IMG/VR virus record: IMGVR_UViG_3300009964_000001
Span: 86,602 to 150,601 of that record
DNA length: 64,000 bases
Origin: a virus
Strand: one strand, 5' to 3'
Position 1 is the first letter of the stretch; every line of letters begins with the position of its first letter. Under the pieces are notes generated by a model. That model was not told the origin of the DNA. It did no database searches and saw only the letters and a program-made list of their open reading frames with translations. Positions 96 through 33,224 of this stretch are shown here, piece after piece. The position numbers were made by a program, and so were the translations under genes.

Positions 96-124
96 TTGCT
101 ATTCTTTATTTTAGTTTGTGCCCA

Positions 125-217: not shown

Positions 218-1003
218 ATGCAGACTTATCTCGATTTGCTTAAGTATGTTCTCGAAAATGGAACTGAGAGAACAGATAGAACTGGGACTGGGACAATCTC
301 CGTGTTTGGTCATCAAGTGGAATATGACGTAAGTGAAAAATTCCCAATTCTCACCACGAAGAGAATTCATATGAGAAGCGTCATAATGGAACTTGCTTGG
401 ATGCTAAAAGGTGATACCAACGTGAAGTTCTTGAGAGACAATGGTGTGACCATTTGGGATGAATGGGCAGACGAAGAAGGAAACCTCGGAAAGATCTATG
501 GAAAGCAATGGAGAGATTTCGGAGGTGTTGATCAGATTCGGGATATCATCGATCAGATTCGGAACAACCCAGATTCACGGAGAATAATCGTCTCGGCTTG
601 GAATCCTGCAGAACTCTCGGAAATGGCACTTCCTCCGTGTCATTGTTTCTTCCAATTCTACGTTGAAGGTGATCGACTTTCACTGAAGTTGTATCAAAGA
701 TCTGCTGATCTCTTCTTGGGTGTTCCATTCAACCTTGCTCAATACTCACTCTTGCTCTATATTGTTGCAAAGATCTGTGGAAAGAAACCTCATAGATTTA
801 TCCACTCGTTTGGAGATCTTCACATCTACAAGAACCATTTAGATCAAGTAAAGCTACAGCTTTCGAGAAAACCATACGAACTCGCAGAGATAAAGATCGT
901 GGGAGATATCGACATCGACAACATCTCCGAAAATCTCATCGATCAAATCGTTATCGAGAACTACAAGCATCATCCATCGATCAAGGCGGATGTGAGTGTA
1001 TAA
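218..1003 (+). CDS. thyA: Thymidylate synthase
   Basis: Hallmark motifs [17 protein letters not shown] (catalytic Cys), DLFLGVPFN; 261 aa; uninterrupted (no intron). Confidence 0.95.
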
Positions 1004-1982: not shown

Positions 1983-2011
1983 TAATCATAATCACAAGCA
2001 TAAACGAAAAG

Positions 2012-3064: not shown

Positions 3065-3075
3065 TAGAAGAATCG

Positions 3076-3954: not shown

Positions 3955-3967
3955 AAAATCAAGCATT

Positions 3968-4183
3968 ATGGATAAAAAGTACAGCGGTTATATCGTGATG
4001 AGTGATGGCTTGTTATCACCAAACGATGAGATCTCGTACAATGGTGACGTTTTCACGTATCTTGGGAAAACACTGAGTAAATCAAGCGGTGAACTTTGTG
4101 GTGTTTTCACAAATGGTAAAACAGAATGTTTTATCCCAGTCAGATTCATAAGAAGTATGAAGGACAAGAAGCTCGTGTACTAA
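3968..4183 (+). CDS. Hypothetical small protein
   Basis: ORF only. Confidence 0.3.
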   Translation: MDKKYSGYIVMSDGLLSPNDEISYNGDVFTYLGKTLSKSSGELCGVFTNGKTECFIPVRFIRSMKDKKLVY

Positions 4184-4374
4184 GAGAAATACTCTCCTTG
4201 GCTCTCCTTGGCATTTCCCTTGATTTCTGAACTATTCAAAGATATGAAAGCCTTCGAAAGTGGTTTTGAGATCAAGGGAAATACGTCTCTTGAAATCGTC
4301 TTTGTCTATTGAATCATAATCAATCCTCATATGATAGGAACTGTGGACATTAACAAAAAGCAAGAAGAATAGCA

Positions 4375-5100
4375 ATGGACATTATCAAAAATCTCGGTTA
4401 TAACCAACACGAGATTCTCGACAACATTCAGAAGTTGTACCTCGAAGGAAAGGGGATCGAATGTGACATCACTTATTCCAAAGGCGCATTCTACGGAAAG
4501 TTCAAAGTAAAAGACGCAGATGGTGAAGCACGTGATATCGTCATTGAGCAACCTCGACTGAAGTTCGATGTTTTCCCACTTTCCGAAGATGTCACAAAAA
4601 TAGAACCACTGACGGCACTTCCTCTCGATGATCTTTCGATCGAATCGATGATGATCGATCTGCCGTTCATCGTCAGACCAACAAAGCCAGATACGTCAGT
4701 CACTGATGAAACTGGGTCGAAGATGTTCAACAGATTTCAAGGTTTCCACACTCCAGACGACATGTATGAAACGTACTGGTTCTGGATCAATGAAGCCTAT
4801 CGTGTCTTGAAGGTCGGTGGAACGCTTTTGTTCAAGACACAGAACACGATTTATGGCGGTATCAACCACAACACTGAGTTTTTCTCATTCATGTGTGCCG
4901 AGAAAGCTGGATTTGTCACAGAAGACACCTTCGTTCTTGGCGCAAAGTCTCGCATGATCTCACCATTTATGACCAAGCAGTTACATGCTCGAAAGTTCAC
5001 CTCGACCTTCTTCGTTTTCAAGAAGCATAAATCTCAGAAGCACAAGAAGTTCAACTATTGGTCATTAATCCCAAAGCTTGAAGAATCTTTCAATAATTAA
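4375..5100 (+). CDS. Hypothetical protein (weak methyltransferase-like segment WFWINEAYRVLKVGGTLLF; no DPPY/FxGxG motifs)
   Basis: 241-aa ORF in operon context between frd and nrd; function not assignable. Confidence 0.5.
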   Translation: MDIIKNLGYNQHEILDNIQKLYLEGKGIECDITYSKGAFYGKFKVKDADGEARDIVIEQPRLKFDVFPLSEDVTKIEPLTALPLDDLSIESMMIDLPFIVRPTKPDTSVTDETGSKMFNRFQGFHTPDDMYETYWFWINEAYRVLKVGGTLLFKTQNTIYGGINHNTEFFSFMCAEKAGFVTEDTFVLGAKSRMISPFMTKQLHARKFTSTFFVFKKHKSQKHKKFNYWSLIPKLEESFNN

Positions 5101-5118
5101 TACAAGAAACTAAACCGT

Positions 5119-7161: not shown

Positions 7162-7181
7162 TATTGATTATTGATTGTGTC

Positions 7182-7221
7182 GTCGACCTCCGTGGGATAA
7201 AAACCACGGAGGTCGATTTTT
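7182..7221 (+). terminator. Rho-independent terminator after RNR
   Basis: gtcgacctccgtgg-gataaaaa-ccacggaggtcga followed by TTTTT. Confidence 0.65.
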
Positions 7222-7243
7222 ATAAGATAATAAAAAACCCAGA

Positions 7244-7729
7244 ATGATTATCACATTTCTCATTATAATCGTCTCTTTCATCCTCTTGTTCTATAAGACG
7301 ATCAAGCTTTATAAGTACACTTCAGATTGTTTCACAAACATCGTCGAAAATGAAACAATCCAACTAAGGTACAAGATGAAAATCGATGGACAAGACGTGA
7401 AGAATGTAAGAAAGACAATGTTCAACGTGCTTTATGTCTTCGTGGTTATACCAGATGAAGTGAGAAAAAGTGATCACATAAGTTACATCATCAGTCATTT
7501 ACAACTGATCGAAGAATCCCTACAAGTTCAGAATCTTTATGGTCTTGTAAGTTCTTCACGTGAGCAGTTTGTAAGTGTAGAGAACGATAAAGAAAGAACG
7601 ATTTATCTCGTAAAGTTCAAGCCGATCATTTATGGTCTTGATCTCTGGAGAATCCTCGTCTTCTTGATGATGATAATCGTCGCAATTTATAATAAAGAAA
7701 TAGAAGAATTTGTATGGCTAATGTTTTAA
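7244..7729 (+). CDS. Hypothetical membrane protein (N- and C-terminal hydrophobic segments)
   Basis: ORF, hydrophobic stretches. Confidence 0.4.
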   Translation: MIITFLIIIVSFILLFYKTIKLYKYTSDCFTNIVENETIQLRYKMKIDGQDVKNVRKTMFNVLYVFVVIPDEVRKSDHISYIISHLQLIEESLQVQNLYGLVSSSREQFVSVENDKERTIYLVKFKPIIYGLDLWRILVFLMMIIVAIYNKEIEEFVWLMF

Positions 7730-8802
7730 GTGGGAACGATCCTTCCTACGTCCTTAATCCAAAGATAAGAACAAGAGAGCGGTCTATCGTTTTCTCGAAT
7801 AACTCTTTCATGGACAGTTTCGGGAGAACTTTCCTTGACATGACCAAGTTCTCTGTAAAATGTGAAAGATCGTCATCGACAATAATCACGATTGATCCAT
7901 ATGAAGAGGTGACAATCCCTGCGTTCAAGAACGTGATTTTCACGTGTTTCGATGGATCTGTTGCACATATGAACGATGCACAGATTCGAAGCAAGCAGAC
8001 TTTACATTTCAATGTGAATGTGGAAGTTGAAAATCCCAAAGATGCACTGTCGTGGAATTCCAAAACTACTCATCTGAACATAAGTTTTGTGTTCCCACCT
8101 TTAATGAGTGAAGGTATCGACGGAATAGCTAACCTCCAAACACAGCATATAAGCATTCAAAGATACCTCTCGAAATCTGGGAAATATGTCGGATATGTTG
8201 AAGATATCACTTTCGAGCATCTTCATACGCAGGTAAAGTTCAACATCCACTACGAATATGACGAGATTTTGAATGAACACGATCTGAAGATAAGCGACTT
8301 CAAAGTTGCTGGTAAGTTCAGTGGAGGTGGAGAAATCGACACCGAGTACAACGTCACGAAAAAGTCACGAGTTTTCATGCTCTCACCGAACATGGACTAT
8401 CAGTTAGATGGTGTGGAATCCGTTAGATTCCTTTACAACAGGGAAACATGGGAGAAGCTATGTGACAATGGAGCTATTCTGAGAAAGTACACCGCCCTTG
8501 GAAGTGAAGAAGACGTTCGATTAGATCACGACATGTTCCAATCGAAGTTCGATGTCGCTGGATTCCGTGGGATTTCTATCGTTGTCGAAAACAACGAGGA
8601 AATCGGAGAAATCCAAGAGGTTTCTGTGGAAAAGATCTACAAGAAGTATGATGAATCGTTTGATTGTTCAATCACGTGTGGTGCTCTCCGAGAACATGAC
8701 GTTTATCACAGCTTCGGTTTTGTAAGACCTCAAGGAAACAGCGTGTCTTTCAGAAATATAACAAGAAAAAATATCGATTTACAAGTTTTATCTTATGAAT
8801 AA
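7714..8802 (+). CDS. Hypothetical protein
   Basis: 362-aa ORF, no recognised motif. Confidence 0.5.
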   Translation: MANVLSGNDPSYVLNPKIRTRERSIVFSNNSFMDSFGRTFLDMTKFSVKCERSSSTIITIDPYEEVTIPAFKNVIFTCFDGSVAHMNDAQIRSKQTLHFNVNVEVENPKDALSWNSKTTHLNISFVFPPLMSEGIDGIANLQTQHISIQRYLSKSGKYVGYVEDITFEHLHTQVKFNIHYEYDEILNEHDLKISDFKVAGKFSGGGEIDTEYNVTKKSRVFMLSPNMDYQLDGVESVRFLYNRETWEKLCDNGAILRKYTALGSEEDVRLDHDMFQSKFDVAGFRGISIVVENNEEIGEIQEVSVEKIYKKYDESFDCSITCGALREHDVYHSFGFVRPQGNSVSFRNITRKNIDLQVLSYE

Positions 8803-9082
8803 ACTCAACCTTTTATCAATCCTTAAGGTGTTGGTAAAGCAGGAACTGGGAAATGTCACAGTCAATGGCAATCTCCTCAGTTATAACAGTGGCGTGGTGT
8901 CCAATAATGTCACAGGTCGTACATACAACGTCGTGGCAAACTACAATTCACTGAATCCAAATGTCGTATCTTGTATGTTCTCCACTTCACAGGGTACGAG
9001 CCATATGGTCTTCGTAAGAGGTCAAGAACGATTTGATCTTCTTCTGAAGCTCATGGAAGTATGTCAAGACAAGCAAATGTAA
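8795..9082 (+). CDS. Hypothetical protein
   Basis: ORF only. Confidence 0.3.
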   Translation: MNKLNLLSILKVLVKQELGNVTVNGNLLSYNSGVVSNNVTGRTYNVVANYNSLNPNVVSCMFSTSQGTSHMVFVRGQERFDLLLKLMEVCQDKQM

Positions 9083-9103
9083 CTTTTTAATTTCAATCCA
9101 AAT

Positions 9104-9367
9104 ATGACTAAGAAAGAATTCATCACAGCTCTCGCAGAGCAGACTGGTGCAACTAAGACGCAGGTAGAAGCCATCATCGGTGCTTATCACAAGACTATCA
9201 TCGAAAGTCTTAAGAAGGATGAGCCAGTGACCTTCGTTGGCTTCGGTACGTACTCATCCAGAGTTCGCCCAGAGCGTGAAGCCTTCAAGCCTGGTACTAA
9301 GGAAAAGATGACAGTACCTGCAAAGAAGGTCGGTAAGTTCAAGATGTCAAAGTCTGTAGAACTTTAG
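9104..9367 (+). CDS. hup: HU/IHF-family histone-like DNA-binding protein
   Basis: MTKKEFITALAEQTGATKTQVEAIIGAY...FGTYSSRVRPEREAFKPGT matches HU fold signature; 87 aa. Confidence 0.85.
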   Translation: MTKKEFITALAEQTGATKTQVEAIIGAYHKTIIESLKKDEPVTFVGFGTYSSRVRPEREAFKPGTKEKMTVPAKKVGKFKMSKSVEL

Positions 9368-9402
9368 TAGAAAAAGGAGATAAACGAATTCGCAATGAAC
9401 GG

Positions 9403-9440
9403 ATGGGCTGGTCTTTGGAAACATAGACCAGCCCATTTCG
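9403..9440 (+). terminator. Stem-loop after hup
   Basis: atgggctggtc...gaccagcccat. Confidence 0.5.
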
Positions 9441-9568
9441 TATAAAAATATCGACCAATCAGAAATATCGAAAATGACGACGGAATCGACACCGACGAAC
9501 ACATACGAATGCTTTCGATATAAAAATGGAAAGAACGAATTAATCAAATCAAACTTAATAAAGAACAA

Positions 9569-10990
9569 ATGAAAGCCAAGAAGCATCAAGTAGGCATGTT
9601 CGATCACATGTTCGAAAAGGGAAAGATCACGTTCTTGTTGGATGGTTATTCCGCAGGTTCATCTGGCAAAGGCAAGTGTGAATCTCTCATCGTAAAGAAC
9701 ACATCGTTCGGCACTGGGGATAAGCGTCTTGCAGTCTGTACCACGAACTCTGCAAATGCATCGCATTGGGTTTATGATGACGGCAAGAAGATGATGTTCG
9801 AAGTACTGCCTTCATCGGCTTATCTTCACGAAAAGCTCGAGTTCGTCGCTATCGGTCATGGTGCATCATTCTCCGTAGAAAGACTCTTCGAGGAAATCAA
9901 GATGAGTGGTCTTCCTCTCGATAAGCTCTTCATCCATCCCAAGGCAGGGATCATCACCAAGATCGATGAAGACTACGAAAAGGGTCTTTGTGATATCGAC
10001 GGCAACTATGGTTCATCCGATCACGATGGTACAATCGCAGGCGGATCTACTTGCTCTGGATCTGGTGCAGTTCGAGCAAAGAAGGTCGTAAGAAACAAGA
10101 CAGTGACTTATGCTTATCAAGTCCCAGAACTCAAGCAGTTCATCTGTGATGTCGAGAAGCGTCTTATGACGTTTATGCTTAACGGAGGATCAGTTCTTCT
10201 ACAGATTGGTCAAGGTTTCCCACTTTCGTATGGTCTCGGCTATAACAAGCAGAACTCAACAAGTCGAAACGTGACGATCAGTGCAGCTTTGGATGACATG
10301 AATCTTCCTCCATTTTTCGCAGGTGATGTTATCTTGAATGGTAGAACTTATCCGATCAAGATCAACAACAAGAAGTATCGTCTTCTCGGTGGGAAGCCAG
10401 TTGTCCGTCTTCACAAGAACTCGGAATCGACACTGAAGTATTATGCTCATAAGCATCTGTTCGACTTCATCGAAGGAGATGATCACGTTTCTATCGTCAC
10501 ACGTAAGGAATTCATTAACTTCTACGAAATGCGTGAGTTCCCCTACCTTGAATACGAGGTTATCGAATCGTTCAGTGGTACTGGCTATTCTCCAATCTGG
10601 AACGAAGAAAGTCACCAGCGAGAAATCACGTGGGAAGATGTCGAAAAGAACTATGGGAAGACGATTCCAGATGATGTAAAGTGCACGTCACTTACCAAGC
10701 TCCCTCGAAGAGTCTTTGAGTTTGATAAGAGCCTTCTGCACGACGGCATTCTCTACAATCTTTCTCCAAATGGCAAAACTCACATTGTCATCAACTTCGT
10801 CAACTGGGTAGATGGTGAAATGGACGGAGAACGTGAGAAGATCACGGAGAAGATAGAAGATTGGCTCTCCAAGAACATGTTCGCAGAAATCGACACTATC
10901 AACAAGCTGGTGGGTGATGAGAAGAAGGTAATACTTTCTGTACTCGGGACTGGTCGTGAATCCGACGACTTTGTCGCTGTAGAAGAGTAA
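9569..10990 (+). CDS. Adenylosuccinate synthetase (PurA)-family enzyme with variant P-loop; PurZ-like candidate
   Basis: Blocks align to PurA: LLDGYSAGSSGKGK (PurA GDEGKGK), NSANASHW (GGHNAGHT), GGSTCSGSGAVRAKKV (GTTGRGIGPAYEDKVAR), QIGQG (EGAQG); 473 aa. Confidence 0.8.
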   Translation: MKAKKHQVGMFDHMFEKGKITFLLDGYSAGSSGKGKCESLIVKNTSFGTGDKRLAVCTTNSANASHWVYDDGKKMMFEVLPSSAYLHEKLEFVAIGHGASFSVERLFEEIKMSGLPLDKLFIHPKAGIITKIDEDYEKGLCDIDGNYGSSDHDGTIAGGSTCSGSGAVRAKKVVRNKTVTYAYQVPELKQFICDVEKRLMTFMLNGGSVLLQIGQGFPLSYGLGYNKQNSTSRNVTISAALDDMNLPPFFAGDVILNGRTYPIKINNKKYRLLGGKPVVRLHKNSESTLKYYAHKHLFDFIEGDDHVSIVTRKEFINFYEMREFPYLEYEVIESFSGTGYSPIWNEESHQREITWEDVEKNYGKTIPDDVKCTSLTKLPRRVFEFDKSLLHDGILYNLSPNGKTHIVINFVNWVDGEMDGEREKITEKIEDWLSKNMFAEIDTINKLVGDEKKVILSVLGTGRESDDFVAVEE

Positions 10991-11017
10991 CTTCTTCTCC
11001 TTCAAGAACAATTAGAA

Positions 11018-11938: not shown

Positions 11939-13276
11939 ATGTATACGAGAATATTTTCACCCCAATCAAATCAAGAAATGTCAAGGAACGTATCTCCTCT
12001 CGATCACAGGTATGCTGATGTCATACAGAACATGTCGAAAGTCTTTAATTCCGAAAGGTACTACAAGACGATGTGGAATGTAGAAGTCGAATACTTTCTT
12101 TACTTCTTAGAAAAGTTTGTACACCGAGAAGTGGACGGAGACCTCATAAGAAACAGTTGTAAGTTCGACAGTCTTGTCTACAACGAGATAATCTCCGAGG
12201 AAAGTGTAACACGGCACGATGTCAAGGCAGTTATCAATGTCTTACAGAACAAACTGGTCTTCCTTGAGAAATCTCAGAAAATCGAGAAAGTGTCGGTTTA
12301 TGTCCATTTCGGACTGACTTCCCAAGACATTGTTTCGTTATCGATGTCTATTCTCATGTCGGAAGCCATTGAAGTCATTGATCATGTCGTCAACTACACG
12401 GAAGCCATTCTCACAAATCTTCATCGAGAGACGAAGGATGTTTGGTCTCTATCAAGGACTCATGGACAATCTGCAGTTCCCCATCTTTTGAAAGACGACG
12501 TTTATAAGTGGAGGTACGATGTCTTGAAGTTTAGACGGCATATTGTCTATGATGTAGTCAAGTTCTCTGGGGCAGTTGGTAACAACTTCGCAATTTCGAG
12601 ACTTTTCAACATGGACGCTCGGAGAGTTGCGGAACTCATGGATTCGTTTGTGAAGAAGTTCGGAAGATTCACTGTTAGTGGAGAAGAATCGACACAAACC
12701 GACAGATGGGAATCGTTCTGTCAGAGATTTTCTGATTGGAATCTGGCCATTTCAAGGATCATCAGTGATGTGCAACAGATCTGGCAAATGTGCTCGGATG
12801 GTTATTTCAAACTGAAAGTGGACGATGGCTATTGCGGATCTTCGGCAATGCCACACAAGATCAACCCTATCAAGTTTGAAAACGCAGAAGGATGCTTCTG
12901 TAGATGTCAGAAAGACTTCGAGTTTTATATTAGTAAGTTATCGAAGTCAAGAATGCATCGTGATCTGTCGGATTCAGTGGTTATAAGAATGATCCCCGAG
13001 ACGTTGTCTTATCTTTATCTTGGATTCTCGTCGTTTGTAAGTGGTCTGAAAGCACTTGAGGTGAATACCGAGAAGATAAAAGACGACCTCGAAGAGAACT
13101 ATCAAGTGTTCTCCGAAATCGTACAGCTCTATCTGAAGTTGAAGGGAGATGAAGACGCATACGAAGAATCAAAGCGTGTGTTTAGAGGAAGCTCGATGAC
13201 ACTCTACGACTTCAAGAAAGCTATCAAAACTCTCGGTATTGAGTACGATGAAATCAAGAAGTTTATAGAACTTTAG
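11939..13276 (+). CDS. purB: Adenylosuccinate lyase
   Basis: Fumarate-lyase signature GSSAMPHKINPIKFENAEG (E. coli PurB GSSTMPHKVNPIDFENSEG); 445 aa. Confidence 0.85.
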   Translation: MYTRIFSPQSNQEMSRNVSPLDHRYADVIQNMSKVFNSERYYKTMWNVEVEYFLYFLEKFVHREVDGDLIRNSCKFDSLVYNEIISEESVTRHDVKAVINVLQNKLVFLEKSQKIEKVSVYVHFGLTSQDIVSLSMSILMSEAIEVIDHVVNYTEAILTNLHRETKDVWSLSRTHGQSAVPHLLKDDVYKWRYDVLKFRRHIVYDVVKFSGAVGNNFAISRLFNMDARRVAELMDSFVKKFGRFTVSGEESTQTDRWESFCQRFSDWNLAISRIISDVQQIWQMCSDGYFKLKVDDGYCGSSAMPHKINPIKFENAEGCFCRCQKDFEFYISKLSKSRMHRDLSDSVVIRMIPETLSYLYLGFSSFVSGLKALEVNTEKIKDDLEENYQVFSEIVQLYLKLKGDEDAYEESKRVFRGSSMTLYDFKKAIKTLGIEYDEIKKFIEL

Positions 13277-15186: not shown

Positions 15187-15645
15187 ATGGATGAAAAAGT
15201 AAAAGAATACGAGCAATTTGTCGTTTCTTGCTTCAACGAGAATCCTACAAATAACAAGGTTCTCGACTTCATTCACATGACAATGGCACTTATGTCAGAA
15301 TCTGGTGAATTTGCTGATATAGTCAAGAAGGCGGTGTTCCATTCTAAGGAGATCTCGAAGGTTGATCTTGTAGACGAACTCGGTGATGTTCTGTTCTATT
15401 TCATGAACATTTGTCATTTCCTTGGTGTCACGATTGATGATGTCATGGAAGCAAACCTCATCAAGATCCGTGAAAGATATCCCGAAGGTCGTGGTAAGAA
15501 CTATAACTTCGGTACACGTAATAAGGCAGAAGAAAAGAAGAGAATAGAACAATTCTTGATGAAGATAAAGCAAGACGTGTCAATCGATATCAATATCAGC
15601 CAAATCAGCGGACATCAACATCAGTCTCAACACATAGGAAAGTAG
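15187..15645 (+). CDS. mazG: MazG-like nucleoside triphosphate pyrophosphohydrolase
   Basis: ESGEFADIVKK...ELGDVLFYFMNICHFLGVTIDDVMEANLIKIRERY matches MazG/NTP-PPase helix motifs (E..E...E..D). Confidence 0.8.
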   Translation: MDEKVKEYEQFVVSCFNENPTNNKVLDFIHMTMALMSESGEFADIVKKAVFHSKEISKVDLVDELGDVLFYFMNICHFLGVTIDDVMEANLIKIRERYPEGRGKNYNFGTRNKAEEKKRIEQFLMKIKQDVSIDINISQISGHQHQSQHIGK

Positions 15646-16495: not shown

Positions 16496-17638
16496 ATGAA
16501 TGAGGGTGTGCAAACTTTTGTGCATCCTCATTCATCTGTATTTTTCAAAGACTTCATGCGATACATTCTCGACAAACTGATAATAATCTTGACGATAATA
16601 CGATACAAACTTTGGAGATTTCCAATAAACGATGACGGAATAATTGATTCAGTCGTGCTTGATAACCACGAAACACTCACTATAAACGGTTGGAAGCCAC
16701 TTTCTTCAGTACACCTAAAAGCTGTTCATGACATTGTGGAAGTTGGTGCAGGTGAGTACAAGGTAAGTGGTTCTGTCAATCACCTCGTCTATTCTTCCAA
16801 GAACACGCTTGAAAGCTATCAGCCCACGAAAGTGAAGGATCTCTCTTTAGGTGATATCTTGATGACGATGGATGGTGCTCGCAAAGTCTCTTCACTCAAG
16901 AAGTCTCATCAGCAGATCGTGTTTGATTTATCTGTCGTGGATGAGACTTTGTCATATTTCTCGGACGGAATACTTTCCCACAACTCTGTAATGAGTGGTA
17001 TTTTTATTGCGTGGTACATCTTGACTAACTACGACAAGACCGTTCTTTGTACTAGTGCTAATGCAGACAAGGTCGATGAGCTTGTTGACAAGATTAACTC
17101 GATCTTCATGCATCTTCCGTTCTATATGAAGCTCGGGATTGAAGTTGATAATGTATCCAAGAAGAAATGGGACAACGGTTGCAAACTGATAGGTGAAACA
17201 GCGACTGAGAACTCTGGTGCAGGTGAAACCGCAGACCTCCTTTATGCTGACGAGTTTGCACTTATCGAACCTAACATAATCAACGAGTTCTTCCGTGTAG
17301 TTTATCCTACACTTTCGGCAAGTAAGAAATCGAAGATGATAATTACCAGCACGGCAAGAGGTATGAACAAGTTCTATCAGCTTTATCAAGATGCGCTTGA
17401 TGGTAAGAACAATTTCAACCCAATAAGAATCGACTGGTGGGAAGTAGAAGGCAGAGATGAACAATGGAGACTTGATCAGATAGCAGACCTCGGTTCTGAA
17501 GCAGACTTTAACCAAGAATACGGTAACTCGTTCATGAGCGGATCAACACTTCTTCTCTCCACTGCTGTCCTCAAGAAACTCGGGAAGTATCAGAAGAAGT
17601 TCGTAAATGGTGTGTTCTCGAATGACGGTTCTTTGTGA
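16496..17638 (+). CDS. Terminase large subunit, ATPase-domain fragment (gp17-like) preceded by intein-like Hint module
   Basis: After ...GILSHN|S the sequence aligns to T4 gp17 from residue 168 (SVMSGIFIAWYILTNYDK ~ TVVAIFLAHFVCFNKDK), Walker B LLYADEFA, C-motif IITSTARG; segment upstream of the P-loop is absent. Confidence 0.75.
   Translation: MNEGVQTFVHPHSSVFFKDFMRYILDKLIIILTIIRYKLWRFPINDDGIIDSVVLDNHETLTINGWKPLSSVHLKAVHDIVEVGAGEYKVSGSVNHLVYSSKNTLESYQPTKVKDLSLGDILMTMDGARKVSSLKKSHQQIVFDLSVVDETLSYFSDGILSHNSVMSGIFIAWYILTNYDKTVLCTSANADKVDELVDKINSIFMHLPFYMKLGIEVDNVSKKKWDNGCKLIGETATENSGAGETADLLYADEFALIEPNIINEFFRVVYPTLSASKKSKMIITSTARGMNKFYQLYQDALDGKNNFNPIRIDWWEVEGRDEQWRLDQIADLGSEADFNQEYGNSFMSGSTLLLSTAVLKKLGKYQKKFVNGVFSNDGSL
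16634..16984 (+). mobile_element. Mini-intein (Hint domain, about 117 aa) at terminase P-loop site
   Basis: Block A-like IIDSVVL, block B SGSVNHLVYS, block F VFDLSVVDETLSYF, block G GILSHN followed by Ser; no canonical Cys/Ser at position 1. Confidence 0.55.
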
Positions 17639-17679: not shown

Positions 17680-18507
17680 TTGCGGAAAATGGTAGAAGAT
17701 GTTCTCCTTGAATACGACCAGTACTTTTTCATACACCCCAACTTTGAACTTCAGTGGTTTAAAGATGAGCGCAATGCGTTCGTTCTATCAATAGACATTG
17801 CAGAAGGTAAAGGAGGTGACTACACGATCATCAACTTCTTCCAAGTCCTCCCAATGACACCTTCGGAAATTGAAGGTGTGAAAATCTTCAACGACGAAGA
17901 ATCATTCTTCAAGCTGGTGCAGGTTGCCATGTTTAGATCGAACATGGTAGAAACACCAGAATGTGCAAATTGGCTGTATCATTTCATAAACGGTTACATG
18001 ATACAGGACAACTTGAAGATCGTTATCGAGAACAACTTTGAAGGGAACTACTTCCGAAACACACTAATGAACATTTATGGAGAGCAGAATGAACTCGATG
18101 AAGATGTCATATTCTGCAAGTTTCTCTATAATGCTCGAGATGATAATGCTCGAACTTTCAGAGTCGGGATTTATCAAACAGAACCCCGAAAGCAACATTC
18201 TTGTAAGATATTCTCCGATCAACTGAAGAATAACCAGCTTGTTCTTACTGAGTTTATGACAATCCAAGAAGCTATGACCTTTGCACGATCAGAAAAATCA
18301 TCTTCATATCGTGCAAGCTCTGGCCATGACGACTGTGTTATGACGTGTGTCAACGTTGTAAACATTCGAGATATTGAAGAATGGTCAGAACTCGTGGAAA
18401 TTGTCAGTGAAAATTGCACAAACGAGTTTTGGAAACTGGTCGACAAGAAGCTCGGGAAACAAGCCGAAAGAAATGACGAACTCGACATATCAGACTATTA
18501 CGATTAA
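17680..18507 (+). CDS. Terminase large subunit nuclease domain (separate ORF)
   Basis: FVLSIDIAEGKGGDYTIINFF (gp17 [21 protein letters not shown]) and SSGHDDCVMTCV (gp17 GYHDDLVMSLV) RNaseH-like nuclease motifs. Confidence 0.75.
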   Translation: MRKMVEDVLLEYDQYFFIHPNFELQWFKDERNAFVLSIDIAEGKGGDYTIINFFQVLPMTPSEIEGVKIFNDEESFFKLVQVAMFRSNMVETPECANWLYHFINGYMIQDNLKIVIENNFEGNYFRNTLMNIYGEQNELDEDVIFCKFLYNARDDNARTFRVGIYQTEPRKQHSCKIFSDQLKNNQLVLTEFMTIQEAMTFARSEKSSSYRASSGHDDCVMTCVNVVNIRDIEEWSELVEIVSENCTNEFWKLVDKKLGKQAERNDELDISDYYD

Positions 18508-18511: not shown

Positions 18512-19162
18512 ATGGACAAAACAACTACTAACAATGTCTCATCGAAGGCGAAGATAGAAGATGAACAGCAGGAGGAGGACATGCTCTTCATACCACAGTC
18601 CAAGACTGGAGGTAACATGTATAAAGAGAACTCTTGTGGTACTTCTTTCTCTGCTGATCAAGATTATCAAGATCAATTCCTTGATGACATTTATAACCCA
18701 GATGAATACAGAACAAGACAGAACTTCTGTGAAAAGTTCTATTCATCTTTGCAGTCGATCATCAACAAACATAAGCGATTCTCGTATATACGATCGTTCG
18801 ATATGAATCACGTGAGATGTGGCGACAACGTTTGCCACCTCGATAAAACATCACCATTTATGATAAACTTTGTACTTCATAATGGTGATGTTGTTGTATC
18901 TGACGATTCTTGTACTTTCTCTCGTGAAGATAAGAGTCATCTGAAGCCATACGAAAAACTGATGAACTCGTTCTTCAAGAATGATCGTTCTGATCTTTAT
19001 GATGTCGTCTATCGGAAAATGGTCGATTTCGATTTCGATCATAAGCTCTATTTTTGCATCTATTGCGAATATTTCAAGATAACAGACCATGAAGCGTTTT
19101 TTGATTCTCTTCCAAAGTTCCACCAAGACAACATAGAACGAATGTATAGACGGAGACGATAA
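18512..19162 (+). CDS. Hypothetical Cys-rich protein (track ORF 18374..19162; start moved to first ATG after terminase stop)
   Basis: ORF; several C/H residues. Confidence 0.4.
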   Translation: MDKTTTNNVSSKAKIEDEQQEEDMLFIPQSKTGGNMYKENSCGTSFSADQDYQDQFLDDIYNPDEYRTRQNFCEKFYSSLQSIINKHKRFSYIRSFDMNHVRCGDNVCHLDKTSPFMINFVLHNGDVVVSDDSCTFSREDKSHLKPYEKLMNSFFKNDRSDLYDVVYRKMVDFDFDHKLYFCIYCEYFKITDHEAFFDSLPKFHQDNIERMYRRRR

Positions 19163-19193
19163 GAAAGAGGACAAAAAACAACAACATAGAGAA

Positions 19194-20690
19194 ATGATCA
19201 ATTGTAAACAGATCAGAGACAAGATGTCGGTGTCTTATTTCGACGAAAACGGAAACATTGCGATATCTGACATAACAATAGACGATCGTGAAAAGTACGT
19301 ATGGACAAAGACAACCGAAGATGACAAGTTTCGAGACAAGACTTACGTATCTCAAGACGGATTCCCTGTGAAAAAAGAACGTAAGTCCTATCTCGACAAA
19401 TATCGCAAGATCGAGTTCTTGCTGTCTCTACCAGAACGTTTACAAGCGAAGATTTTCTCAAACAATCAGCCACGTAAGTTCTTCTGGGATATTGAAACAG
19501 AAGTTTTTGATGACTTCCCCGATGCTGGGAATCCTGTTGGGAGAATCTTCACGCATCAGTATTGTGATGAGTTCGGCAATGGTACTGTCATGGGCATCAA
19601 GCCACTTTCACAGACACAAATCGACTCTATCGAACAGAAGATCAACGACTATCTCTCACAGATCACCGATAAGACGCTTCATCAGAGATATAAGTTCCGT
19701 TACATTTACTACCCCGATGAGTTCACGATGAACAAAGACTTCGTCGAGAATCATGCAACAAAGATGCCGTGTATTTTCGGATGGAACGTGCTGAAGTTCG
19801 ATACAAGATACCTCGTCAACAGGTGTAAAAAGACGAACATTGATCCTACAATTCTCTCACCAAAGAGAATGCTTTACTCGACGATTGCGAAAGATAAGTT
19901 CGACCATTCATCGAAAATTGAAATCGAACTTCCTCTTCATCGACCAATCATCGACTACATGCAAATCTTCGAATTCTTTGATAGATCGATTAAACAGAAG
20001 TCATCAATGTCGCTCGATTTCATCGCATCAGAAATCCTTGGTGTCAAGAAGATCCATCATTCCGAAACTCTGATGGAACTCTATGAGAAGGACTATGAAC
20101 GTTACGTGCTTTATGGTATCATCGATACGTTCCTCGTGGCATTGATCGACAAGAAGTGTAGAACATTTGAATCAATGAGCGTTCTTGCAAATCTCCTACG
20201 TGTCGAAGTTGCACAGTCTATGTTCGTTAGTGTCGGGATCGAAACACTCTTGTGTGACTACTATTACAAGCATTACAACAAGGTGTTTGTAAAGGACTAT
20301 GACAAGCAGATTCCCGAAGGTGAAACTTATAGCGCAGGATTCGTTCTACAACCAGGTATTGGTGTTTATGATGGTATCGTCATCTATGACTACGAATCAT
20401 TGTTCCCTTCAATCATGCAGATGTTGAACGTCGGTGAAGATGTTTACCTCGGTCATACCGATGATCAAGGGAAAACCTACGTGGACAAACTCGGAGAAGA
20501 ACACGAACTTGACGAGACGATGTGCTATTCATCCAGTGGTGCAGTTTACTCGAAAAACAGAGATTCCGCAATTCGAACGATGATTTCGAACATGTTCAAT
20601 AAACGAGTAGAAGCAAAACACAAGGAAGCAGAAATCAAAGCAGATATTAATCACTTAAAGCAGATATTAAAAGATAACTTCGGACATTAA
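19194..20690 (+). CDS. Family-B DNA polymerase, N-terminal part only (3'-5' exonuclease domain + motif A)
   Basis: Exo I FWDIETE, Exo II GWNVLKFDTRYL, Exo III YVLYGIIDT, motif A DYESLFPSIM; ORF stops about 90 aa after motif A, motifs B/C absent. Confidence 0.8.
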   Translation: MINCKQIRDKMSVSYFDENGNIAISDITIDDREKYVWTKTTEDDKFRDKTYVSQDGFPVKKERKSYLDKYRKIEFLLSLPERLQAKIFSNNQPRKFFWDIETEVFDDFPDAGNPVGRIFTHQYCDEFGNGTVMGIKPLSQTQIDSIEQKINDYLSQITDKTLHQRYKFRYIYYPDEFTMNKDFVENHATKMPCIFGWNVLKFDTRYLVNRCKKTNIDPTILSPKRMLYSTIAKDKFDHSSKIEIELPLHRPIIDYMQIFEFFDRSIKQKSSMSLDFIASEILGVKKIHHSETLMELYEKDYERYVLYGIIDTFLVALIDKKCRTFESMSVLANLLRVEVAQSMFVSVGIETLLCDYYYKHYNKVFVKDYDKQIPEGETYSAGFVLQPGIGVYDGIVIYDYESLFPSIMQMLNVGEDVYLGHTDDQGKTYVDKLGEEHELDETMCYSSSGAVYSKNRDSAIRTMISNMFNKRVEAKHKEAEIKADINHLKQILKDNFGH

Positions 20691-20693
20691 AAG

Positions 20694-20951
20694 ATGGAAA
20701 TAAAACTGTTAGGAAAGAAGATACTCATAAAGCTCAATGAGGTCGAAAAGCAGGTCGATGGCTTCGAACTGGTACAACACAACGATGTAGACCAAACCGC
20801 AGGTGTTGTCTCGAATGTTGGGATAGGTGTTACAGAAGTCAAAGTCGGTGACAAAGTGATCGTCAACAAGTTCTCTGGTATTGAGGTTCTTATCGAAGGT
20901 GATAAGTTCAAGGTAGTAGAGGAACACGAAATATTAATCATTGTAAGATAG
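20694..20951 (+). CDS. groES: Co-chaperonin GroES (Cpn10)
   Basis: KILIKLNEVEKQ...VKVGDKVIVNKFSGIEV...EHEILIIV aligns along full GroES. Confidence 0.8.
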   Translation: MEIKLLGKKILIKLNEVEKQVDGFELVQHNDVDQTAGVVSNVGIGVTEVKVGDKVIVNKFSGIEVLIEGDKFKVVEEHEILIIVR

Positions 20952-20956
20952 ACTGA

Positions 20957-22546
20957 ATGAACGCTGTAGACATTAAAAGCGGATCAGAAGCCAGAGAACT
21001 GATCCTTATTGGTGCAAAGAAGATCCATGACGCTGTAGGATCAACACTGGGACCTGGTGGTCGAAATGTCATCATCAAGCACAACACGTACGATGTACCA
21101 CAGGTCACTAAAGATGGTGTGACTGTAGCAAGAAAGATGAAGCTACAGAACTATTGGCACAACATTGGCTGTCAGCTCGTAAAGCAGGCATCAATGCGAA
21201 CAGCAGTTGATGCAGGTGATGGAACAACTTCCTCTGTCGTCATGGCGTACACGATGATGAAGCTGATCGATGAACTTCTTGAGGAAAATCCTGATATCGA
21301 TGTTCACCGACTTCGTCATGAGATGGAGAAGATGAAAGATGTCCTCATTGAACGACTTCGGGAAATCTCCACACCAATCGTTGATATTCAGCAGGTGTTC
21401 GATATTGCAAAGATCTCTACGAACAACGATGAGAAACTTGCAGGGTTACTTTCCGAGATTTATGGGAAGATTGGTAAAGATGGGATAATCGTTCTCGAAC
21501 AATCACAACTTTCGAATATCACCTATTCGATCGAATCTGGATTCCGATTTGACGGAGGATGGCAATCTCACTATTTCGTAAAGGACAAGTCAAAGATGTC
21601 GTTCGAATCTGACGATTGTGCAATCTTCATCACAAATCACAAGATCCAAGACGGCAAGACAATGCTGAATGCGCTTTCAAGGATCTACGGCACAGGTGTC
21701 CGTGATCTACTGATCATTGCGGAAAATATCGAAGGTGAAGCGTTATCGACTTTGATCGCCAATAATCAGAGTGGAAAGATGAACATTTGTCTTGTCAATC
21801 CTCCGTATTATGGACAGAAGCGTGAAGAATACCTCACTGACCTCTCCATTTCGCTTGGTATGAAGCCACTTATGGTGGGAGATCAGTCCGTGTCACCTCT
21901 CTCGTTTACAGAAGAGTACTTCTCTTGCGGTCGAAGCGTCTTTGTGGATAAAAGCACCACGACGATCAGAAATGACAAGGAAAGTGTATCGTCTGCAGTC
22001 GAAGAGCATATTTCGAATCTGAAGTCTCTTATGGATTCTGAAGATGAAGACAAGGAATGGATCGAAAAGAGAATAGCGACCTTAAGATCATCAGTTGCCG
22101 TCATAAAAGTTGGTGGTAATTCTGAATCTGAGGTTTATGAACACAAGGACAGACTTGAGGATGCGATTTGTGCTATAAGATCGGCATACAAGGACGGCAT
22201 AGTTGCAGGTTGTGGCATTACGTACATACGACTAATCTCTGCGCTTGATCCTTCTCTTGACACGTTCCATATCTTGAAATCTGGACTTGAATCCGTGTTC
22301 AAGAAGATAATGGACAACTCGTGCATATCAGAAGAAGAAAGATCATCGATTCTCTACTTTGTTGCCGAAGATGAAGGATACGGTTATGATGCCAAGAAGC
22401 GTGAGAAGTCGTACAATTCGATCAGAGATGGTATCATTGACTCGGCACGTGTTATAAAAAACTGTATCGAGAATTCGATATCTGTCGCTATCATGTTCAT
22501 GATCTCTGACAACATAGTCATGGAAATCGATGAATCGATAATCTAA
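20957..22546 (+). CDS. groEL: Chaperonin GroEL (Cpn60)-like
   Basis: AVGSTLGPGGRNVII, DAGDGTTSSVVMA (GroEL AGDGTTTATVLA), 529 aa. Confidence 0.85.
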   Translation: MNAVDIKSGSEARELILIGAKKIHDAVGSTLGPGGRNVIIKHNTYDVPQVTKDGVTVARKMKLQNYWHNIGCQLVKQASMRTAVDAGDGTTSSVVMAYTMMKLIDELLEENPDIDVHRLRHEMEKMKDVLIERLREISTPIVDIQQVFDIAKISTNNDEKLAGLLSEIYGKIGKDGIIVLEQSQLSNITYSIESGFRFDGGWQSHYFVKDKSKMSFESDDCAIFITNHKIQDGKTMLNALSRIYGTGVRDLLIIAENIEGEALSTLIANNQSGKMNICLVNPPYYGQKREEYLTDLSISLGMKPLMVGDQSVSPLSFTEEYFSCGRSVFVDKSTTTIRNDKESVSSAVEEHISNLKSLMDSEDEDKEWIEKRIATLRSSVAVIKVGGNSESEVYEHKDRLEDAICAIRSAYKDGIVAGCGITYIRLISALDPSLDTFHILKSGLESVFKKIMDNSCISEEERSSILYFVAEDEGYGYDAKKREKSYNSIRDGIIDSARVIKNCIENSISVAIMFMISDNIVMEIDESII

Positions 22547-22626
22547 AGAGAAACTATGACACCCAGTAGATTCATAAGAAACTCGAAAACAGAACTTTTA
22601 AACAACATCATCAGTCAATCATTATT

Positions 22627-23766
22627 ATGAGCAACGAAGTTTTTGATTTTGGTGGGATTTTCGACATGAAGTCCGATGACTTCAAGCAGAAGGAAACCAC
22701 CCAATTCTCCAACCCAGACTTTTACTCTCCTCGCATCGACGACGAGAATGTAAAGGACAACATCTATCAGTCAAAGCTGAGATTCCTGCCAAATGTCAAC
22801 GTCGCCCCCAACGGAGAGCGCACGAACATCGTAGTAAAGCACGTCTACTACGTTCCCGATCCAGACAACCCTGGGCAGAAGTGCTACATCGATGCTCCAT
22901 CGAACGAACCTAAGGCGAAGGATATCGCATCTGTGGCGTTCATGATGTTCGGCTACGATAAGAGCAAGATCTACAGGTCTGACGCTCCTGCAATCGTCAA
23001 GAAGAACGCAAAGCAATTGAAGCGCAACACCTACCACTACTCTTTGGTGCAGGTCATCAAGGACACACAGCACCCCGAACTCGAAGGATCTGTAAAGATC
23101 TTCAGATATGGTGGTGTGATCTACGAGAAGATCATGCAACTTATCAATGGTAACCCAGCTCTGGGGATTAACCCAATCATCCCCTTCGATCCTCTCAATG
23201 GTAAGGAATTCATCATGGTTCTTTCCAAGGGTCAGAATGATCAAGGTCAAGAGCTGAACACCTACATGCAGTCGAGATTCGTCGATGATCGTTCCGCAAT
23301 CACGATCGGTGGAAAGCAGATGACGGATTCCAATGAGGATAAGCAGGAAATCTTCAACTTCCTCAAGGAAAAGTCTCCCGATCTCTCGCAGACCATGTTC
23401 CAAAAGATGACGGAAGACGACGTTGAGCGTCTCAATCGGGCAGTCCGTGATGTTCTCGACGATGATAAGTACTTCGCTATGGCTTATCAAGCCTGCTATG
23501 GGAAGCCATTTACCCCCGATGCAGTCCGTGAATCTGTCGTGTCCACAGAGAAGTACGACGATGAAGAAGTCGAAGTCGAAGAAGAGATAGTCGAAGAACC
23601 AGTGAAGAAAGCTCCACGACGAGAAGAACCAGCATCTTCTACGATGTCCAAGTTCAAGTCCCTCAAGGACGAAGCTGAAAAGCCTGCACCTGCAAAGAAG
23701 CCGACCGATAAGCCATCGATCTCTGACATGATGGAAGATATCGATGACGATCTCGACTTTGAATAA
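22627..23766 (+). CDS. ssDNA-binding protein, T4 gp32-like, with acidic C-terminal tail
   Basis: SKLRFLPN...NIVVKHVYYVP (gp32 AVIRFLPSKN...AILVNHGF); C-terminus DMMEDIDDDLDFE. Confidence 0.5.
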   Translation: MSNEVFDFGGIFDMKSDDFKQKETTQFSNPDFYSPRIDDENVKDNIYQSKLRFLPNVNVAPNGERTNIVVKHVYYVPDPDNPGQKCYIDAPSNEPKAKDIASVAFMMFGYDKSKIYRSDAPAIVKKNAKQLKRNTYHYSLVQVIKDTQHPELEGSVKIFRYGGVIYEKIMQLINGNPALGINPIIPFDPLNGKEFIMVLSKGQNDQGQELNTYMQSRFVDDRSAITIGGKQMTDSNEDKQEIFNFLKEKSPDLSQTMFQKMTEDDVERLNRAVRDVLDDDKYFAMAYQACYGKPFTPDAVRESVVSTEKYDDEEVEVEEEIVEEPVKKAPRREEPASSTMSKFKSLKDEAEKPAPAKKPTDKPSISDMMEDIDDDLDFE

Positions 23767-31238: not shown

Positions 31239-32846
31239 ATGATTGCGGATTTCTTATCAAAATTGAGAATTAAGGCATACGACACACTCAACGACACCAT
31301 AAACTTCCTCATCCAAAAATACAAGACTGATATTCGTTCATTCTCGTATTCATCACCATTTGGCCAGATTCTCATTGTTCTGCAGAACCACATGCAGAAC
31401 ATTTACTACTATATCACCGATTCCGCAAATCAGACAAACTTCCACACTGCAAACAGACAATCTTCGGTTTATGGACTTGCCAGACTTCAAGGTTATAACG
31501 CTTATCGTGGGAAATCGGCAACTGGTGTCATAAATCTGAAAGTCAAGCCAGATGCCAAGACAAATCTCATAACTGGGAATCGTGTTTTTATACCAAACTA
31601 TTCAAAGCTAACGTGCTTGCAGAATGGTCTCGTTTACATGCTCGATCTTGGTAAAGATTACGAGATCTTCGACATACAAAAAAGAGTAGACGTTTCCTTG
31701 AACATTATAGAGGGAAAACTCGAATATCAGTCGTTTACAGGGACAGGTGAAGATATTCAGTCCTATGAAGTTCATGCATCTCAATGGAACATGTTTGATA
31801 ACGACTTCGTTATAGTCACTGTAAATGGGAAAGAATACCCTCAATACGATTCACTTTACGATATTCCTTACGGAGAATGTGGATGTTTAGTGAAAACTGG
31901 AATGACTTCGGGGATTGATGTCATCTTCGGGAAATCATCACATAACGAAGTACCTCCGCTTGGTGCAGAAATACGAGTAGACTACATCACTACGAGTGGT
32001 TCTGTGGGGAACGTCTTTGAAGATACGGTCTTGTTCTCCCTCAATGACACTTGCTTTGACACGTATGGAAACGAGATAAACATGTCCGACATCTTTGTTG
32101 CCGTCAATGAGATCAATCCTTCATTTGGCGCAGATTCAGAACCAATGGAGATGACAAAGATTCTCGCACCGAACATTTCTCGAAACTTTGTAATACACGA
32201 CAAACGAACAATAGAGAACTTCTTCCGTCGTATGAATTACTTCTCTCTGATAGATGTTTTCAAAAGAGAAGTGAATCATCACAATGAATATTCCGTCGTT
32301 CTTGTCCCAAAGCTCAAGTCGCTCATACTTCGGAACGAAGACTACTTCGATTTCAATACTGATCACCTTTTTATAAAGGAAAATGAAAAGGTGAAACTGA
32401 TAAACGCTATAAAGTCGTATGGTAACAAATCGCTGGATATTTCAATAAGTATTGTAAATCCAGAGACCAGAAGATTTGTGGTTTATCTTTATGTTGAACT
32501 TTTCCGAGAAGTGAAGGGTAAACCCACGGACTTTGAACGTGTACAATCCGACATTCGTCATGCACTATCCGCTTATCTTCTCGATTCACAGAAGCTGACG
32601 AAGATAACTCATTCTGACATAGTTTCACAGATTGACGGCATTGTTGGTGTCGACAGTGTCAAAGTGGTGTTTGTGCCAGAGTACGAAGGTGATGTGGATG
32701 AAATCGGCAACATTTCTCTGAAGCCATCACAAATCGCAGTCCTTCGTGGAGGTTTTACAGATTCTCAAGGTATCTCTTACAAGGACACTTTCACGACACC
32801 AAACGAGATGTCATCGGTCAACATAGCAATAGAGTATTCCAAATAA
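31239..32846 (+). CDS. Hypothetical protein (likely virion/structural; late-gene context)
   Basis: 535-aa ORF. Confidence 0.5.
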   Translation: MIADFLSKLRIKAYDTLNDTINFLIQKYKTDIRSFSYSSPFGQILIVLQNHMQNIYYYITDSANQTNFHTANRQSSVYGLARLQGYNAYRGKSATGVINLKVKPDAKTNLITGNRVFIPNYSKLTCLQNGLVYMLDLGKDYEIFDIQKRVDVSLNIIEGKLEYQSFTGTGEDIQSYEVHASQWNMFDNDFVIVTVNGKEYPQYDSLYDIPYGECGCLVKTGMTSGIDVIFGKSSHNEVPPLGAEIRVDYITTSGSVGNVFEDTVLFSLNDTCFDTYGNEINMSDIFVAVNEINPSFGADSEPMEMTKILAPNISRNFVIHDKRTIENFFRRMNYFSLIDVFKREVNHHNEYSVVLVPKLKSLILRNEDYFDFNTDHLFIKENEKVKLINAIKSYGNKSLDISISIVNPETRRFVVYLYVELFREVKGKPTDFERVQSDIRHALSAYLLDSQKLTKITHSDIVSQIDGIVGVDSVKVVFVPEYEGDVDEIGNISLKPSQIAVLRGGFTDSQGISYKDTFTTPNEMSSVNIAIEYSK

Positions 32847-32852: not shown

Positions 32853-33224
32853 ATGGAAAAATCGATCAAATTAACAAGGAACAACTTTCTTGTAGAAGAA
32901 TTGTGTAAAGATGCGCTCATCGATTTCGATTCTCCGAGAAATGTTGGTGTTGTCGTATGTGGTAACGAGAAACATGAAGATGTGAAAGTCGGGGACAAGG
33001 TCTTCTTCGGTGAAACCAATGGTTACATAATAGAACTCAACGGCATTCGTTATTGTCTTCTATCATATCCAGAAATAATCGGTGTTATCGAGGGGGAATG
33101 TGGTCGGGAAGACATAGTCGTAGGAAGATATCACGACCTTGATGATTACATAGACAAACTCACACAGAAGAATCTTCTCGGTGACAATCCGATCAACATA
33201 CACGAAGGTATGTTTTATAAATAA
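32853..33224 (+). CDS. Second GroES/Cpn10-like (gp31-like co-chaperonin fold) protein
   Basis: NVGVVVCGNEK...VKVGDKVFFGETNGYIIELNGIRYCLLSYPEIIGVIE resembles GroES C-terminal half. Confidence 0.4.
   Translation: MEKSIKLTRNNFLVEELCKDALIDFDSPRNVGVVVCGNEKHEDVKVGDKVFFGETNGYIIELNGIRYCLLSYPEIIGVIEGECGREDIVVGRYHDLDDYIDKLTQKNLLGDNPINIHEGMFYK

Follow-up and report, generated by a model that had tools for sequence, protein, structure and literature searches.

A family-B polymerase gene that stops after motif A

How does a T4-like phage make its replicative DNA polymerase when the gene for it stops between two catalytic motifs and gives way to a pair of chaperonin genes? This question is raised by a 64,000-nt stretch of viral DNA (IMG/VR virus record IMGVR_UViG_3300009964_000001, positions 86,602 to 150,601; hereafter, the window), in which an open reading frame (ORF) for a family-B DNA polymerase (PolB), located at 19194 to 20690 on the plus strand, ends after motif A and is followed by a GroES and a GroEL gene. 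An earlier inspection of the letters alone (the sequence-only reading) had described this arrangement, which both Pfam and the coordinates bear out, and had proposed that the polymerase is either split into distant cistrons or interrupted by an inserted chaperonin cassette. We consider it highly probable (about 0.88) that the replicative family-B polymerase of this phage consists of two polypeptides encoded by two genes, with its fingers domain interrupted at the tip. The phage is T4-like and belongs to the gp23/gp32/gp44 group; a Bacteroidota host fits both the affinity of its GroEL and its nearest cultured phages, which are those of Flavobacterium and Bacteroides. A blastn search with window positions 19000 to 23000 returned no match among 50,697 phage records.

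The 498-aa product of the truncated-looking ORF, the N-half (PolN), was assigned by Pfam, PHROGs, sequence motifs and a structure model. It comprises an N-terminal domain, a 3′-5′ exonuclease, the opening portion of the palm (motif A included) and finger helix 1. Its Pfam DNA_pol_B match is restricted to profile positions 26 to 142 of 453, and DNA_pol_B_exo1 just missed its cutoff (22.5 bits, cutoff 23), while PHROGs returned phrog_262 together with phrog_2062, an N-half-only family of 502 positions. As previously noted, Exo I (D99, E101), Exo II (N198, D203), Exo III (Y307, D311) and motif A (D399-YESLFPS) are all present, and in an alignment of 30 homologues each of these residues is either invariant or conserved to at least 90%. 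The finger-helix residues R471 and K475, equivalent to RB69 R482 and K486, are invariant in the N-half family. The ORF stops 99 residues after D399.

Motifs B and C had been reported missing from the window, and an all-frame scan, tblastn and Pfam agree on this point. That is, neither K...NS.YG (motif B) nor a PolB-type DTDS occurs in any frame of the window; tblastn with a full-length relative produced one match to the window, ending at 20663, and with a stand-alone C-terminal half produced nothing past that position in the window; and Pfam searches over all large window ORFs revealed no second PolB piece. Nor are the two motifs hidden near the end of the N-half, the last 90 residues of which align to RB69 ∼421 to 509.

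Seen from the window alone, a stop between motifs A and B does look like a truncation, as would result if the ORF were a pseudogene or had suffered a frameshift or an assembly error in what is really a single polymerase gene. However, no reading frame continues past 20690, no PolB similarity follows in any frame, and the identical stop is found in independent ENA, Logan, JGI and IMG/VR assemblies. Homologues down to ∼20% identity stop at the same place. In addition, comparison with five strains, at 93 to 95% nucleotide identity over the PolN gene, yielded pN/pS ratios of 0.01 to 0.04, and the N-half is thus under strong purifying selection. We give next to no credence to a defective single gene.

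The C-terminal half is encoded 23 kb upstream

The sequence-only reading had recommended searching the whole genome for an ORF carrying KxxxNSxYG and DTDS, and there is one. Leftward extension through the ThyA gene at the window's left edge leads onto JGI 3300022575 contig Ga0248010_1052, a metagenomic contig of 150,577 bp, part of which (stretch L107) matches window positions 1 to 11003 at 100% identity with 0 mismatches and bears the partner gene. This gene, recognized by PF00136 and its motifs, encodes a 400-aa PolB C-subunit (the C-half, PolC) at L107:4747-5949, which is equivalent to window positions −5036 to −3834 and to ∼81,565 to 82,767 on Ga0248010_1052. It lies 3.8 to 5.0 kb left of window base 1, on the strand of the N-half and with 23,027 nt between the two genes; the C-half comes first and the N-half second. 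Rightward extension beyond the window reached only a 1.3-kb contig.

The C-half contains the second finger helix with motif B (KVALNSIYG), the motif-C aspartates (NYADTDS), the KKKY primer-binding motif (consensus KKxY; SKKKY in context), the thumb and a C-terminal tail, and it has a half-specific PHROG of its own (phrog_1918, 382 positions). Twelve positions, K45, N49, S50, Y52, G53, D121, T122, D123, S124, K198, K199 and Y201, are invariant in 23 C-half homologues. That tail is hydrophobic (LIAFDPLW) and is probably the site of sliding-clamp binding, by analogy with T4/RB69 gp43, where the C-terminal tail of the polymerase has this role; a gp44-like clamp-loader gene is located at 39013 to 39984.

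The two genes occur together beyond this one assembly. A degenerate pattern for peptide VNYADTDSVFIRY matches the same five ∼150-kb IMG/VR contigs that bear the N-half, and in 5/5 of these strain contigs the match precedes the N-half by ∼23 to 24 kb on the same strand; each contig shows a single N-half locus and a single match to the C-half motif. A profile built from the C terminus of Flavobacterium phage MaF61 polymerase and gp110 of Sphingomonas phage PAU, two relatives described below, retrieved only 383-aa C-halves of another lineage (P0036-41), and none of the 80 loci that it matched was on a contig of the present phage.

The neighbourhood of the C-half differs lineage by lineage. Here, a DUF5131 gene (L107:5954-6766) comes directly after it, and in a relative with 58% identity a DUF5131 gene (L005:12119-12811) follows the N-half. 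Similarly, a block made up of a large protein (1124 to 1365 aa) and a TnsA-like endonuclease stands after the N-half in one lineage and after the C-half in another. These swapped DUF5131 and TnsA-like blocks hint that the two halves were formerly neighbours and were parted by rearrangements.

The break maps to the tip of the fingers

Only ∼20 to 25% identical to T4/RB69 gp43, the two halves tile a full-length polymerase. On PHROG 262, a full-length profile of 856 positions, the N-half covers positions 12 to 496 and the C-half 484 to 841. The corresponding ranges are 185 to 486 and 539 to 793 on RB69 gp43, 182 to 500 and 524 to 780 on T4 gp43, and 16 to 543 and 572 to 994 on the unsplit, 994-aa polymerase of MaF61. 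Extrapolation puts the end of the N-half at RB69 ∼509 (T4 ∼506) and the start of the C-half at RB69 ∼519 (T4 ∼513). These alignments place the break at RB69 ∼510 to 520, at the finger tip, with one finger helix on each side of it; the fingers of RB69 gp43 span residues 469 to 572. The gp43-type polymerase is not a single polypeptide chain here; it is encoded by two ORFs, which are separate across the clade.

Structure models fit the same division. The N-half model (AlphaFold; pLDDT 85.9) ends in a 38-residue helix (residues 459 to 496), and the first helix of the C-half model (pLDDT 86.8), 35 residues long (residues 20 to 54), holds motif B. For both halves, the top Foldseek match in the PDB is RB69 gp43 (E values of 3.6e-22 for the N-half and 9.9e-14 for the C-half), and target-normalised TM-scores of 0.40 and 0.30, respectively, are consistent with each half being a part of that protein. 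The only stretch of the N-half modelled at low confidence is residues 372 to 403 around motif A, as would be expected of a strand that depends on the motif-C hairpin of its partner chain. In the assembly that we envisage, the N- and C-chains would associate noncovalently at a 1:1 ratio to form an equivalent of T4/RB69 gp43, with the two finger helices packing antiparallel and the strands of motif A and motif C completing one palm sheet.

Might the N-half instead act on its own, for example as a proofreading exonuclease, with the C-half paired elsewhere or inactive? Its exonuclease domain is complete and modelled at high confidence, as this would require. Yet the catalytic residues are divided between two protein families and each set is invariant in its own family: the motif-A aspartate, R471 and K475 among N-halves, motifs B and C among C-halves. 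Such conservation of a divided active site makes sense only if both chains form one active site. Moreover, from lineage to lineage, N-half and C-half identities change in parallel. Independent action of the N-half is therefore very improbable.

We would rate equally low the chance that the halves are rejoined, be it as proteins through a split intein, as in Nanoarchaeum PolB or cyanobacterial DnaE, or as RNA through trans-splicing or an intron. In favour of such rejoining, the same genome appears to use, in its terminase, an atypical segment resembling the split intein VidaL. The polymerase junction, by contrast, shows no intein or intron signature by Pfam, PHROGs, Rfam or direct reading. On T4 gp43, the N-half aligns to within 6 residues of its end, and alignment of the C-half starts at residue 12, which leaves no room at either terminus for intein pieces. 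Direct reading of the junction revealed neither a Cys/Ser-initiated Hint segment nor an HN motif, Pfam found no intein in the N-half (E ≤ 0.01), and the PHROGs matches of the C-half include no intein-related family. Rfam detected six tRNAs and nothing else in the window and L107, and a mere 3 nt lie between the PolN stop codon and the GroES start.

That two such chains would bind each other and polymerize is inferred from known systems. The subunits gp43A and gp43B of phage 25 copurify and are active (PMC2988022). Pfu polymerase, when split by engineering near the finger tip, remains fully active, and its C-fragment becomes soluble only on refolding with the N-fragment (PMC3061061). PhiKZ DNAP N (gp82) and DNAP C (gp50) form a stable 1:1 complex seen by cryo-EM (PMC13648687). 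Two points weigh against a two-subunit replicase in the present phage: its binding and activity are carried over from these three systems, and of a genome of ∼150 kb we have read ∼85 kb (the window plus L107), such that a second, complete polymerase elsewhere is conceivable.

Relation to known two-part polymerases

Both a two-piece PolB and an adjoining GroES-GroEL pair are already known in other phages. The classic cases of the former are the bicistronic gp43 genes of the T4-related phages 25, 31, 44RR, 65 and 133 (Petrov et al.; summarised in PMC3061061 and PMC2988022). As in those phages, the present PolB is cut between the finger helices, with the exonuclease and motif A on the N-cistron and motifs B and C on the C-cistron. 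Of the two proposals of the sequence-only reading, the first, distant cistrons as in gene 43 of some T4-related phages, is correct. The cistrons of the T4 relatives, however, follow one another colinearly at a distance of 2 bp to 3 kb, whereas here they are separated by 23 kb and the C-cistron is upstream. Distance and gene order are the only differences from the classic cases, and both have precedents in PhiKZ and Methanothermobacter.

PhiKZ likewise has a two-gene PolB with far-apart genes, motif A on the N-subunit and motif C on the C-subunit. Its split, by contrast, lies in a large palm insertion and leaves both finger helices on the C-subunit; its subunits are larger (638 and 731 aa), and it has the clamp-like partner Rhc. 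In Methanothermobacter, the PolB halves are encoded 85 kb apart and the split lies in the palm, ∼83 residues further C-terminal (PMC3061061). The Pfu split is near the finger tip as here, albeit artificial (PMC3061061).

Two cultured phages are closer. Sphingomonas phage PAU (NC_019521), from the same broad clade, also has a stand-alone N-half, gp105 (487 aa, 27% identical), and a C-half, gp110 (404 aa), both annotated as DNA polymerase; unlike in the present phage, these are colinear with four genes (2.4 kb) between them and have no adjoining chaperonin. Flavobacterium phage MaF61 (PQ858689, ORF64 to ORF67) is the closest cultured relative. Here, too, GroES and GroEL genes adjoin the polymerase, but MaF61 differs in having a single 994-aa polymerase chain, a tandem two-domain GroES, and the chaperonin pair upstream.

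The split is kept across a wide range of relatives

Focusing on the N-half, 31/34 homologues, ranging from 100% down to ∼25% identity, are 354 to 573 aa long, and the same break is kept in lineages down to ∼43% N-half identity. The 10 closest C-half homologues (37 to 99% identity) measure 398 to 417 aa. The longest contig with N-half P0011 and that with C-half P0200 have one and the same length, 167,485 bp.

For a broader view, a C-half profile was searched against 1.84 billion cluster representatives, giving 541 clusters at E ≤ 1e-30. Among the best 150 of these 541 clusters, 88 are stand-alone C-halves of ≤470 aa and 29 are longer but also start just before motif B (117 in all), leaving only 12 with a full-length look. 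The 29 longer C-halves (among P0046-P0192; 471 to 699 aa) carry extra sequence at various positions, and a few longer representatives have a widened gap between motifs B and C.

No C-half was detected within 10 kb of the N-half in the relatives searched by profile, and at 77/80 C-half loci the N-half was absent within 10 kb. Lak-C1, LR756502 and LR756500 have stand-alone N-half ORFs with no C-half within 6 kb. In one metagenomic relative (L092), a single 253-aa ORF (L092:3368-4129), without any family match, lies between the halves, and another encodes an unsplit polymerase of 981 aa. Split polymerases prevail in the nearest sequence space, and Lak megaphages and published huge phages contain them too, unannotated. 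The finger tip is accordingly a break point that family-B polymerases tolerate naturally and in general, a property useful for split-polymerase engineering.

In a polymerase tree calculated by neighbour joining (NJ) only, in which deep nodes are poorly supported, MaF61 PolB groups with the present lineage at 99.5% bootstrap. Its unsplit polymerase beside split lineages would call for either repeated splitting or re-fusion. For annotation, a PolB ORF stopping after motif A in a large T4-like or jumbo phage should not be called a pseudogene or frameshift, as the partner gene may sit tens of kilobases off, even upstream.

The chaperonin operon travels with the polymerase gene in this lineage

Only 3 nt downstream of the PolN stop codon begins the gene for a GroES-type co-chaperonin (20694 to 20951, plus strand), an 85-aa protein with a single Cpn10 domain (Pfam E value of 1.6e-8, 34.9 bits at a cutoff of 21.1; phrog_3188) that aligns over its full length to Cpn20/GroES structures. 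In co-chaperonins of this kind a mobile loop binds GroEL; here the loop, EKQVDGFELVQ, has a glycine followed by F-E-L, not three small hydrophobic residues; similar loop deviations occur in 23% of viral GroES (PMC5649160).

It is followed at 20957 to 22546 on the plus strand by the gene for a group I chaperonin of the GroEL type, 529 aa long and without a C-terminal GGM tail (Pfam Cpn60 E value of 1.1e-38; phrog_5725 E value of 1e-114). The NCBIfam GroEL model scores 375 bits (cutoff 352), although the protein stays below the stricter equivalog cutoff of TIGR02348 (368 versus 582). Its best PDB match is an ancestral Fibrobacteres-Chlorobi-Bacteroidetes chaperonin (E value of 3.4e-87, residues 5 to 523), and TLGPxGRNV, VTKDGVTVA, AGDGTT, RxEDA (as RLEDA) and GxxD are conserved. 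Compared with five strains, at 90 to 93% nucleotide identity over the chaperonin genes, pN/pS is 0.02 to 0.12 for GroES and 0.05 to 0.09 for GroEL. By these features, the pair reads as a separate and intact phage chaperonin operon under purifying selection. Behind it, at 22627 to 23766 on the plus strand, lies a gp32-like gene for a single-stranded-DNA-binding protein (Pfam gp32 E value of 1.9e-9).

While the GroES-GroEL pair predicted from the letters is real, calling it notable for a T4-like phage went too far. GroEL homologues are present in 272 phage records (a few apparently bacterial), PHROGs families exist for both proteins, and cultured phages with GroEL homologues include those of Flavobacterium, Bacteroides, Vibrio and Cellulophaga, with identity to GenBank phage GroEL being ≤34%. 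Viral GroES>GroEL operons have been documented in viromes and virioplankton (PMC5649160), in the same order as here and with a full-length GroEL containing ATP-site motifs. As GroES>GroEL operons are already known in phages, the present pair is a further case and not exceptional, differing in its position inside a T4-like replication module, directly after the gene of the polymerase N-subunit.

Did this operon split the polymerase? An insertion of the GroES-GroEL cassette at the finger tip of an intact gene, with the C-half moved away later, would explain why GroES begins right behind the break and why the order PolN-GroES-GroEL is retained at 48 to 50% identity. The sister phage MaF61, unsplit and with GroES-GroEL immediately upstream, makes a local rearrangement of such a block conceivable. 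Nevertheless, the gene after GroEL is gp32, and not the C-half, in every genome examined; the order PolN-GroES-GroEL-PolC was found in none of them, and the C-half of the present phage is located upstream of the N-half.

Comparison of the lineages, with four arrangements in the well-supported clade uniting MaF61 and the present lineage, speaks against insertion as well. In the present phage and its relatives at 48 to 50% PolN identity, the order is PolN, GroES, GroEL, gp32. MaF61 has a tandem GroES, GroEL and then the unsplit polymerase. The P0012 lineage (43%) shows the same break; there, a tandem GroES precedes PolN, and neither GroEL nor PolC occurs within 10 kb, and the P0006 lineage (58%), again with the same break, has PolN followed by small ORFs and DUF5131 and no nearby chaperonin. 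In PAU, L092, Lak and the huge phages, the polymerase has its split at this site as well, and chaperonins are lacking there. With the same break accompanied by a chaperonin upstream, downstream or not at all, and the C-half never after GroEL, we regard the insertion proposed in the sequence-only reading as unlikely. The lineage comparison indicates that the chaperonin operon travels with the polymerase gene in the present lineage and did not create the split in it.

The tandem two-domain GroES, like plastid Cpn20, is encoded by MaF61 ORF64 (L001:5354-5917) and in the P0012 lineage (L116:9375-9980). Taken together, the chaperonin-polymerase linkage takes three arrangements in the lineage and its sister MaF61 and is absent in one lineage, with GroEL identity going down to 25%. 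From this repeated linkage comes the idea that the phage chaperonin may help to fold or assemble the replicase.

A second GroES-like gene, also predicted earlier, is real. It is located at 32853 to 33224 on the plus strand, directly behind a baseplate-wedge gene (31239 to 32846), and encodes a divergent 123-aa protein (Pfam Cpn10, 27.3 bits at a cutoff of 21.1). The Cpn10 match is limited to residues 37 to 79 and to the C-terminal half of the profile; the loop region is short and atypical, a 43-aa extension forms the C terminus, and GroES structures in the PDB match at E values of 0.005 to 0.007. A tblastn search of the 50,697 phage records with this protein gave no match.

A candidate 2-aminoadenine gene set

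The window also contains genes suggestive of modified DNA. An ORF homologous to PurA at 9569 to 10990 has PurZ as its best NCBIfam and PDB matches. The NCBIfam match (NF038379, E value of 3.9e-24) is below the cutoff of that model; among structures, phiVC8 PurZ (E value of 2.6e-16) ranks ahead of archaeal PurA (1.9e-8). Its P-loop reads GSSGKG where PurA has GDEGKG, and this Asp-to-Ser change, diagnostic of PurZ, is reported for all 147 phage PurZ sequences (PMC12884076). Further members of the set are PurB (11939 to 13276), a MazG-type pyrophosphohydrolase (15187 to 15645) and an HD/YfbR-like hydrolase (38244 to 39002). By sequence similarity, this PurZ-like gene set suggests that the phage may have 2-aminoadenine (Z) DNA.

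In the studies of Z genomes considered here, the replicase is only ever a PolA-type DpoZ or PrimPol (PMC8599892; bioRxiv 10.1101/2025.10.22.683976). That the two-subunit PolB replicates a Z genome is a tentative idea which we hold to be rather doubtful. If it holds, a T4-like phage would copy Z-DNA with a replisome built on PolB, and the open finger tip and the co-travelling chaperonin operon might be adaptations, in nucleotide handling or subunit assembly.

An EcoRI-type adenine methyltransferase gene (58242 to 59207, minus strand; Pfam E value of 1.2e-123) would be curious if genome adenine is replaced. It lies among six tRNA genes (Gln, His, Ser, Tyr, Met and Lys; 56731 to 62026, minus strand).

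Other features of the genome

The gene of the large terminase is fragmented into ORFs at 16496 to 17638 and 17680 to 18507. The first begins with a lead of ∼160 aa, residues 62 to 164 of which resemble the atypical split intein VidaL (PDB 6vgv, E value of 0.0097); this intein-like segment ends in SHN|S exactly where the post-Walker A sequence resumes, and the ATPase core comes next. The nuclease domain is a separate ORF (phrog_24361), and relatives have the same layout. An N-terminal terminase piece with Walker A and a short intein segment was not found in the window or L107.

At the left end of the window (218 to 3954), a thymidylate synthase gene is followed by three consecutive DHFR-like ORFs (328, 350 and 292 aa). 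The third has a strong DHFR match (E value of 8.8e-37); the matches of the first two are weak, and these proteins have long extensions.

AT-rich noncoding regions occupy window positions 62100 to 64000 and L107:3343-4747, the latter directly upstream of the C-half gene. Up to 88 to 92% identical in patches, the two regions are dense in GAAAGACTATG-like repeats of ∼10 to 21 bp, spaced at multiples of the helical turn, and in AAGGAAAGTACCTTCC palindromes. Such AT-rich repeat regions might serve as origins of replication or as arrays with a regulatory role. A 19-bp unit, TCTTTGATTGTTGTCATAG, repeated in tandem at least 10 times, closes the window, and the JGI contig ends inside this same array.

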